Below are positions 351-697 of a stretch of 5,958 bases of DNA, piece by piece. The number at the start of each line of letters is the position of its first letter. Position 1 is the stretch's first letter. A program made the translations under genes and the position numbers. The DNA is from a virus (lineage: Duplodnaviria; Heunggongvirae; Uroviricota; Caudoviricetes). Where the stretch lies: the IMG/VR virus record IMGVR_UViG_2698536337_000006; one strand, written 5' to 3'. Below the pieces are notes generated by a model. That model was not told where the DNA came from, searched no databases, and was given only the letters and a program-made list of their open reading frames with translations.

Positions 351-379
351 TTGACTCTAAGAAAATTCCGATCTATTGT
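351..379 (+). promoter_or_regulatory. Candidate sigma70 promoter: TTGACT (-35) - 17 bp - TATTGT (-10)
   Basis: -35 hexamer at 351-356 matches the consensus at 5 of 6 positions, with a 17-bp spacer and -10 at 374-379. The background is AT-rich, so chance promoter-like matches are common. Confidence 0.25.
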
Positions 380-664
380 TAGGGTCATCAAAGTTACTTA
401 ACAGTATTCCGAAATGAAAATACAAAGCAAGCTAATTGTCTTATTAAACATTATTATTGCATTTATATTATTTGAGCTTTTAGCTCAAAAATTTGGTTTG
501 AGTACATTATTTTAAAGCAAGATAAACAATATCGGGCACTCTAGTTTTTATAATTAACAATTAAACGTCCATAAAATGTTATTTACTTTTCTTCGCTATT
601 GTCATATCTTAATATAGTGGCTTACGCCACTCTACTTTCATCACATTTTGTACGTTTATGTACT

Positions 665-697
665 CGCCATGAAGCTCTTTCATGGCGATTTTTTATT
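665..697 (+). terminator. Rho-independent terminator (plus strand)
   Basis: Perfect 9-bp stem cgccatgaa (665-673) / ttcatggcg (679-687), 5-nt loop gctct, immediately followed by ATTTTTTATT (688-697). On the minus strand no U-tract follows, so it is oriented to stop plus-strand transcripts coming from the AT-rich segment. Confidence 0.55.

Follow-up and report, generated by a model that had tools for sequence, protein, structure and literature searches.

A putative prophage moron encoding a YncL-related small membrane protein at the tail-fibre end of Escherichia coli lambdoid prophages

We identified a short transcription unit candidate immediately past the tail fibre assembly gene of an Escherichia coli lambdoid prophage, and we think it likely that this unit is a prophage moron that expresses a membrane peptide homologous to the stress response protein YncL, by the scheme of expression proposed below. 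The window, by which we mean the whole 5,958-nt stretch of DNA that was analysed (IMG/VR record IMGVR_UViG_2698536337_000006), is the tail-fibre end of the prophage. It carries the side tail fibre gene stf (1029 aa, 1362-4451, minus strand, from the ORF list) and tfa, the last late gene, which homologous loci annotate as coding for the tail fibre assembly protein (193 aa, 781..1362, minus strand). The unit spans about 235-780 (a ∼545-bp module) and is convergent with tfa.

The first-pass annotation, which was made from the letters of the window, had placed an ATG at 414 opening a 33-codon ORF to 515 on the plus strand, and comparison with the ORF list showed both the coordinates and the quoted peptide to be exact (414..515, peptide MKIQSKLIVLLNIIIAFILFELLAQKFGLSTLF). 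A longer ORF is ruled out by an in-frame TAA at 399-401, and the remaining five frames of the ORF region are full of stops. The lineages compared were the main type, the K15KW01 type (∼94% identical) and the divergent FCI51 type (∼78% identical). All three keep a count of 33 codons and the position of the stop in the lineage alignment, and ORF length and stop are unchanged despite a 5-nt indel directly 3′ of the stop codon. The conservation with synonymous-site bias that the earlier annotation had suggested looking for is present across these three deep lineages, which are all E. coli and therefore provide few independent substitutions: relative to the FCI51 type there are 18 substitutions, 7, 1 and 10 of them at codon positions 1, 2 and 3, made up of 11 synonymous and 7 non-synonymous steps (dN/dS = 0.09), and the comparison with the K15KW01 type gives 5 synonymous changes and 1 non-synonymous change (dN/dS = 0.04). 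When the same substitutions were placed at random, none of 20,000 trials yielded five or fewer amino-acid changes.

Of the ∼81 copies that could be evaluated, drawn from metagenomes, viral contigs and E. coli genomes, ∼80 have an intact ORF. Two natural loss-of-function alleles of the small ORF were observed, a start-codon loss (ATG to ATA) in one K15KW01-type copy on a metagenome contig (L071:3120-3122) and a frameshift in the A5 run that gives the database protein P0003, in which a new C-terminus follows Lys26 and the length is 43 aa. Disruption of the ORF within conserved DNA, which had been named as evidence against the gene, is thus confined to rare alleles. This, together with the codon-aware conservation, indicates that the ORF is translated and selected as protein, and judged by its substitution pattern ORF 414-515 is a real protein-coding gene under strong purifying selection. 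None of the RefSeq and GenBank records inspected annotates it (among the matches listed), and the two phage records with a hypothetical protein in the spacer annotate different ORFs. One of the spacer ORFs, a 37-aa ORF at 269-382 (plus strand) recorded as a hypothetical protein in phage PhiR70_1, has ACG in place of its ATG in the K15KW01, SCEC020026 and FCI51 lineages and is probably not a gene. A terminator-like hairpin at 471-489 inside the 33-codon ORF is broken in two lineages and so is no conserved feature.

The peptide matches the NCBIfam model NF000537 ('stress response membrane protein YncL') with 25.0 bits (E = 1.3e-5), below the NCBI curated equivalog cutoff of 35 bits, which makes it a homologue or paralogue of YncL and no equivalog. 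The FCI51-type peptide reaches 23.5 bits and K-12 YncL itself 68.6 bits. By BLASTP, 11 of 28 residues are identical to K-12 YncL (39%) and 18 of 28 similar in an ungapped alignment that starts at Met1 (E = 2e-7). The alignment score of 60 was reached by none of 20,000 shuffled sequences (mean 20.2 ± 4.1, maximum 47), and none of nine decoys of the same composition matched NF000537, so that composition alone does not explain the similarity. By these comparisons the peptide is a diverged homologue or paralogue of YncL. Strong purifying selection and the YncL homology together bear out the earlier reading of the ORF as a gene for a small single-helix membrane protein.

YncL, 31 aa long, is a validated protein of the inner membrane. 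Minimal medium and heat shock induce it, and its production leads to sublethal depolarisation, the phage-shock response and nucleoid condensation and lowers viability (PMC12542507). In Salmonella, yncL is sigma-S dependent and was first catalogued as the sRNA STnc1110 (PMC5437024). YncL is cleaved in vivo by RseP (PMC10470546). The prophage peptide has no match in Pfam, PHROGs or PADLOC, and an exhaustive HMMER search of 1.84 billion representatives returned nothing beyond the peptide and a single frameshift variant; no wider family emerged. A tblastn search of the peptide against phages returned nothing, although phages mEp332, PhiR70_1 and ev099 carry the ORF; as these known carriers were missed, that negative is uninformative. 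A literature search for the sequences of the peptide and of the 3′ block described below found nothing.

Upstream of the ORF, a consensus scan finds a candidate sigma-70-type promoter at 351..379 on the plus strand, TTGACT-17-TATTGT, just as the earlier annotation had given it. A C directly precedes the −10 hexamer (TCTATTGT). Five promoter-like sites were found against 4.2 ± 1.9 expected, and a 9/12 match lies at chance level in AT-rich DNA. The −35 element and the spacing are unchanged in nine aligned representatives of all lineages, with one variable −35 site in a wider sample of 50 distinct copies. The −10 element is TATCGT in the FCI51 type, with T1, A2 and T6 kept. From this promoter we infer a transcription start at ∼386. 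The 5′ leader (380..413, plus strand) is short and A/U-rich, with 73.5% identity to the divergent lineage. The first-pass annotation had noted that no Shine-Dalgarno sequence stands before the ATG; the absence is real (ACAGTATTCCGAA-ATG), but it is outweighed by the evolutionary evidence for translation. The DNA upstream of the promoter (235..350, plus strand, 75% identity to the divergent lineage) is a conserved part of the module and possible regulatory DNA. Its left homology boundary lies at ∼203-235, at 235 for copies beside sitD and at 203 for the Qin-junction and FCI51-type copies. Directly upstream of the −35 element we observed a perfect 7-bp palindrome, TTTGCTT-TGC-AAGCAAA (324-340), that the main and K15KW01 lineages keep but the FCI51 type lacks. 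It could serve as an operator or have no meaning.

The 3′ untranslated region consists of a variable proximal part (516..616, plus strand) and a conserved terminal block. In the alignment to the divergent lineage, 516-581 is 59% identical, with indels, and 582-616 is 80% identical. The terminal block begins with hairpin 1 (617..632, plus strand, AGUGGC-UUAC-GCCACU), which is found in the MFE, centroid and consensus folds and varies only by C622U (G-C to G-U) and one loop change. It continues with a mostly unpaired U-rich linker (633..663, plus strand, CUACUUUCAUCAYAUUUUGUACGUUUAUGUAC), which matches the 78%-identity lineage at 30 of 31 positions and has a variable-site density of 0.10 versus 0.37-0.46 in the flanks. 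The block ends in a rho-independent terminator (664..697, plus strand), and the intrinsic terminator call of the earlier annotation stands: an 11-bp stem at 664-688 is followed by TTTTTTATT to 697, the stem measuring 10-11 bp and the loop 3-5 nt depending on the fold. The terminator dominates the predicted fold of 612-697 (z = −6.9 versus shuffles), and its stem is kept in all lineages, with changes in the loop, the terminal pair or the U-tail. It would operate on the plus strand only, since the minus-strand reading has no U-tract, and it is convergent with tfa. The spacer from the terminator to the tfa stop codon (698..780) is 64% identical to the divergent lineage.

Unexpectedly, conservation within the unit is highest outside the ORF, in these last ∼80 nt, comprising hairpin, 31-nt linker and terminator, a point that the first reading of the sequence had missed. 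The block is 94% identical to the FCI51 type versus 59% and 64% in its flanks, and among 50 distinct copies its density of variable sites is 0.11 versus 0.37-0.46 in the flanks. Synonymous sites of the ORF are less conserved than the block (pS 0.56 relative to the FCI51 type). The conservation of the block beyond both flanks and ORF synonymous sites suggests that it is constrained beyond the needs of a terminator and has a possible added role at the RNA level, with the linker as a candidate seed or protein-binding segment. The unit may then be a dual-function RNA, in which the mRNA for the peptide also supplies 617-697, released or separately transcribed, as a regulatory sRNA that binds Hfq or ProQ and acts on mRNAs of host or phage by way of the linker. 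Such a role would extend the moron reading and not exclude it, and we put it forward tentatively, with more doubt than conviction. Beyond the conservation, it would fit the order of 5′ hairpin, U-rich single strand and U-tailed terminator, which is the architecture of enterobacterial sRNAs, and variants that preserve structure (the G-C to G-U change and the loop changes). It would also fit a weak resemblance over full length to MicC (22.8 versus a threshold of 90) and Esr41 (15.6 versus 102), the best Rfam scores obtained.

Against the dual-function RNA, no Rfam family matches the block at the gathering threshold, and the lineage alignment holds no double compensatory changes in the two 3′ helices. 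A weak candidate internal promoter on the plus strand, seen by eye (TTTACT at 582-587, a 17-bp spacer and TATCTT at 605-610), is not conserved, its −10 element being TAAGTT in the FCI51 type. Pairing of the linker to the unit's own start region or to the K-12 yncL leader was no better than in shuffles (p = 0.36 and 0.57). The conservation of the block could also reflect a patch of past recombination instead of constraint. The literature search brought no mention of such an RNA, and for prophage sRNAs near tfa it returned only EcOnc27, an unrelated sRNA of Stx phages. The first-pass annotation had considered the transcript equally well a non-coding small RNA; for the ORF part we reject this on the codon-aware substitution pattern, and an added function at the RNA level may accompany the coding one. 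We think it unlikely that the unit is a captured, diverged YncL turned into a bifunctional RNA, whose peptide would change the physiology of the inner membrane and so benefit the lysogen, for example by blocking the entry of superinfecting phage DNA or tuning the membrane potential, and whose 3′ 80 nt would act in trans on host genes.

The earlier annotation had also pointed to the type I toxins. In a type I toxin-antitoxin system the peptide would damage the membrane and be held in check by an antisense RNA or by a fold-back of the 3′ UTR similar to hok/sok. The small hydrophobic peptide with its basic N-terminus, the depolarisation and lowered viability caused by the homologue YncL (PMC12542507) and the absent Shine-Dalgarno sequence would agree with this, as would a predicted helix between 402-420 and 593-608 that covers the start codon and has one compensatory change (A-U to G-C). 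Five of the 15 pairs of that long-range helix are broken in the divergent lineage, however, and the helix is absent from the centroid fold; with one compensatory pair versus five broken pairs, we rejected a hok-like fold-back between the 5′ and 3′ UTRs. There is no minus-strand terminator in 1-1400, and the sole minus-strand promoter-like site near the ORF (605 to 576) loses its −35 element in the FCI51 type. No match to Hok, Ldr, Ibs, TisB, ShoB, Zor or a PADLOC system was found in Pfam, NCBIfam or PADLOC, YncL is not known to have an antitoxin, and the 5′ leader of ∼28 nt is shorter than in typical type I toxin mRNAs. As neither a conserved antisense promoter or terminator nor a match to a toxin family was found, the type I reading is unsupported and we regard it as improbable.

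It is very improbable that the ORF is there by chance and the region is a spacer with a terminator or a purely non-coding RNA: the AT-rich composition (25-30% GC), the absent Shine-Dalgarno sequence, the missing annotation in RefSeq records among the matches listed and the rare start-loss and frameshift alleles would fit this, but the strongly codon-aware substitution pattern, the specific YncL homology with clean composition controls and the preservation of ORF length while adjacent non-coding DNA gains indels speak against it. The same substitutions and controls counter the caution, raised when the ORF was first noted, that AT-rich DNA produces hydrophobic ORFs by chance.

We return to the reading of the unit as a moron, which draws on its position and distribution. 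The window opens with an IS1 terminus (1..31, a 31/31 match to the end of K-12 IS1A) that cuts an AT-rich spacer, and homology to intact relatives begins at 32. In the intact relatives, which include E. coli ECamp52, where the prophage lies beside bioA/ybhB, and phages PhiR70_1, ev099 and mEp332, an AT-rich spacer of ∼1.5 kb separates tfa from an AraC-family cargo gene. The IS1 terminus separates the spacer in the window from that gene. The GC content is 25-34% in 32-780 versus about 50% (46-53%) in tfa and stf. The AraC-family regulator (∼247 aa) was observed ∼1 kb from the unit and divergent from it (L002 1017-1760, L003 2001-2744, L001 4501-5244), and the YncL-like unit was also found without the AraC-family gene.

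The segment from ∼203-235 to 780 also adjoins sitABCD, the ydfJ/Qin junction and a Rac remnant, and its occurrence beside differing cargo marks it as a discrete module that goes with the tfa end whatever cargo lies next to it. It is present in 828 of 5426 complete E. coli genomes (about 15%), with up to four copies per genome, and in 4 of 50,697 phage records, the phages named being mEp332, PhiR70_1 and ev099. When 185,579 species-representative genomes were scanned for an 18-nt core of the 3′ block, the 8 hits were all chance matches from unrelated phyla, and relatives beyond E. coli were not found. Copies of the unit in the divergent lineage adjoin sitD, or an MFS transporter and Rac genes (ynaK, trkG), and are flanked by tfa fragments (FCI51, L005 2245-2928; Sx181, L067 2306-3168). 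These fragments suggested an invertible tail-fibre segment, an idea that we rejected because both lie on the same strand; same-strand fragments on both sides of the unit show repeated recombination at tfa.

Several further features of the window lie outside the unit. The Rfam family 'IS009' gives a full-length match above threshold at 821-1019 on the minus strand (218 bits, E = 3e-54) that is wholly inside tfa, and hence the family appears to model conserved coding DNA for tail fibre assembly and not a separate RNA. A duplication of ∼0.5 kb, 4343-4870 versus 5339-5866, covers the stf N-terminus, an intergenic terminator-like hairpin and a 3′ part of lom, the copies being 90% identical over 300 nt and then near-identical. 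A 53-aa transposase-like N-terminal fragment (MLSREDFYMIKQMRQQGAYIVDIATQIGCSERTV..., 4867-5028, minus strand) separates the two copies, and lom at 4544-4870 is truncated. The duplication and the fragment point to an IS-mediated rearrangement of the tail region. Between lom and stf there is a GC-rich hairpin followed by a U-tract (AGCCCGCCGGUUCAGGCGGGCUUUUUUGU; 4455-4537 and 5451-5533, minus strand), with a weak match to the Rfam Trp_leader family (21.7 bits, E = 0.64); it is most likely a plain intrinsic terminator after lom. Direct repeats in stf (2832-3070 and 3288-3879, minus strand), comprising 107-nt units at 74% identity and five 46-nt units, encode a long region rich in Ala, Ser and Thr, and weak plus-strand matches to the Rfam family isrG in this repeat region are likely spurious.

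With its own terminator, deviant GC content, variable presence and neighbours, small gene and orientation against the late operon, the unit has the anatomy of a phage moron as the term was defined for HK97. The factor-independent terminator is present in all lineages as a stem at 664-688 followed by a U-tract. The base composition deviates (25-34% GC in 200-800 versus 46-53% in tfa and stf), and the insertion is discrete and variably present with varying neighbours. A promoter of its own that could act in the repressed prophage is predicted: the 9/12 match is at chance level, though the aligned lineage representatives share the −35 element, the spacing and the key bases of the −10 element.

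In the scheme that we propose, a horizontally acquired and self-contained unit would lie beyond the last tail gene and point against the late operon. Host RNA polymerase would initiate in the lysogen from the 351-379 promoter, at ∼386, to give an mRNA of roughly 310 nt. The AUG at 414 would be translated despite the absent Shine-Dalgarno sequence, aided by the unstructured A/U-rich leader. The peptide would insert into the inner membrane as a single helix (residues ∼7-24), with Lys2 and Lys6 flanking it at one end and Lys26 at the other. YncL suggests by analogy that the peptide would modulate membrane potential and stress physiology; HK97 gp15 suggests that it may have been repurposed to benefit the prophage, for example to block superinfection. 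Transcription would end at the 664-697 terminator, which would also stop antisense transcription from running into tfa. In the least supported step of the scheme, the last ∼80 nt probably act as an RNA element, perhaps a stability or 3′-end domain or a regulatory RNA derived from the 3′ UTR.

YncL and the moron layout are known; what this analysis adds, as far as sequence comparison can tell, is a prophage-borne paralogue of YncL that has escaped annotation and is arranged as a textbook moron, and the constrained 3′ RNA domain is the only moderately novel feature of the unit. Annotation systematically falls short for both small membrane proteins and prophage morons, and here a gene that about 15% of complete E. 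coli genomes and several sequenced temperate phages carry is uncalled in the records inspected. Through this gene the chromosomal stress peptide YncL, which causes depolarisation and metabolic silencing, would be connected with phage biology, as YebO was with superinfection exclusion through gp15. Being a naturally diverged paralogue, it could help to dissect which YncL residues matter (Asn12 and the [K/R]FG motif). The constrained RNA domain at the 3′ end is a candidate for a new sRNA of prophages. Should the gene prove to be unexpressed and non-functional, the finding amounts to an annotation gap only.

Among known systems the unit is related to YncL itself (E. coli b4598; Salmonella STM14_1932/'STnc1110'), also a peptide of ∼31-33 aa with a single hydrophobic helix. 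The two peptides share Ser5, a basic residue at position 6, Val9-Leu10, Asn12 in the helix, Ala16, Leu19-Phe20, Leu22 and a C-terminal [K/R]-F-G motif, the prophage peptide being two residues longer at the C-terminus. By our reading of the sequences, the leader is short (∼28 nt) and a C stands before the −10 element in both yncL and the prophage unit, and like Salmonella yncL the prophage unit has a transcript that resembles an sRNA at first glance (PMC5437024). The K-12 gene lies between patD and ortT, has a Shine-Dalgarno sequence (AAAGGUGG) and ends in a ∼60-nt tail with a hairpin that lacks a U-tract, whereas the prophage gene adjoins tfa, has no Shine-Dalgarno sequence and is followed by a 180-nt 3′ UTR whose terminal domain is conserved and whose terminator has a canonical U-tract.

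The terminal domain resembles enterobacterial sRNAs that are derived from 3′ UTRs or are terminator-proximal in its conserved hairpin, U-rich single strand and intrinsic terminator, but differs from Esr41 and MicC in scoring far below the gathering thresholds of these families. The type I toxins Hok, Ldr, Ibs, TisB, ShoB and ZorO are likewise small hydrophobic single-helix peptides, and they act on the inner membrane; the prophage unit differs from them in showing no antisense or antitoxin RNA signal and no family match and in its short leader.

The moron layout itself has a counterpart in HK97 gp15, a YebO-derived small protein of the inner membrane that is encoded by a moron and keeps out superinfecting phage (PMC3594210). 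The protein belongs to the YebO family and not to YncL, and its gene lies between the tail chaperone and tape-measure genes, the YncL-like unit after tfa. Superinfection exclusion has been demonstrated for gp15, and for the YncL-like peptide it is suggested by analogy only. Both are units of gene and terminator among or beside lambdoid tail genes, with a promoter that for the YncL-like unit is predicted, and gp15 is, as the YncL-like peptide is predicted to be, a small inner-membrane protein with chromosomal relatives in enterobacteria.
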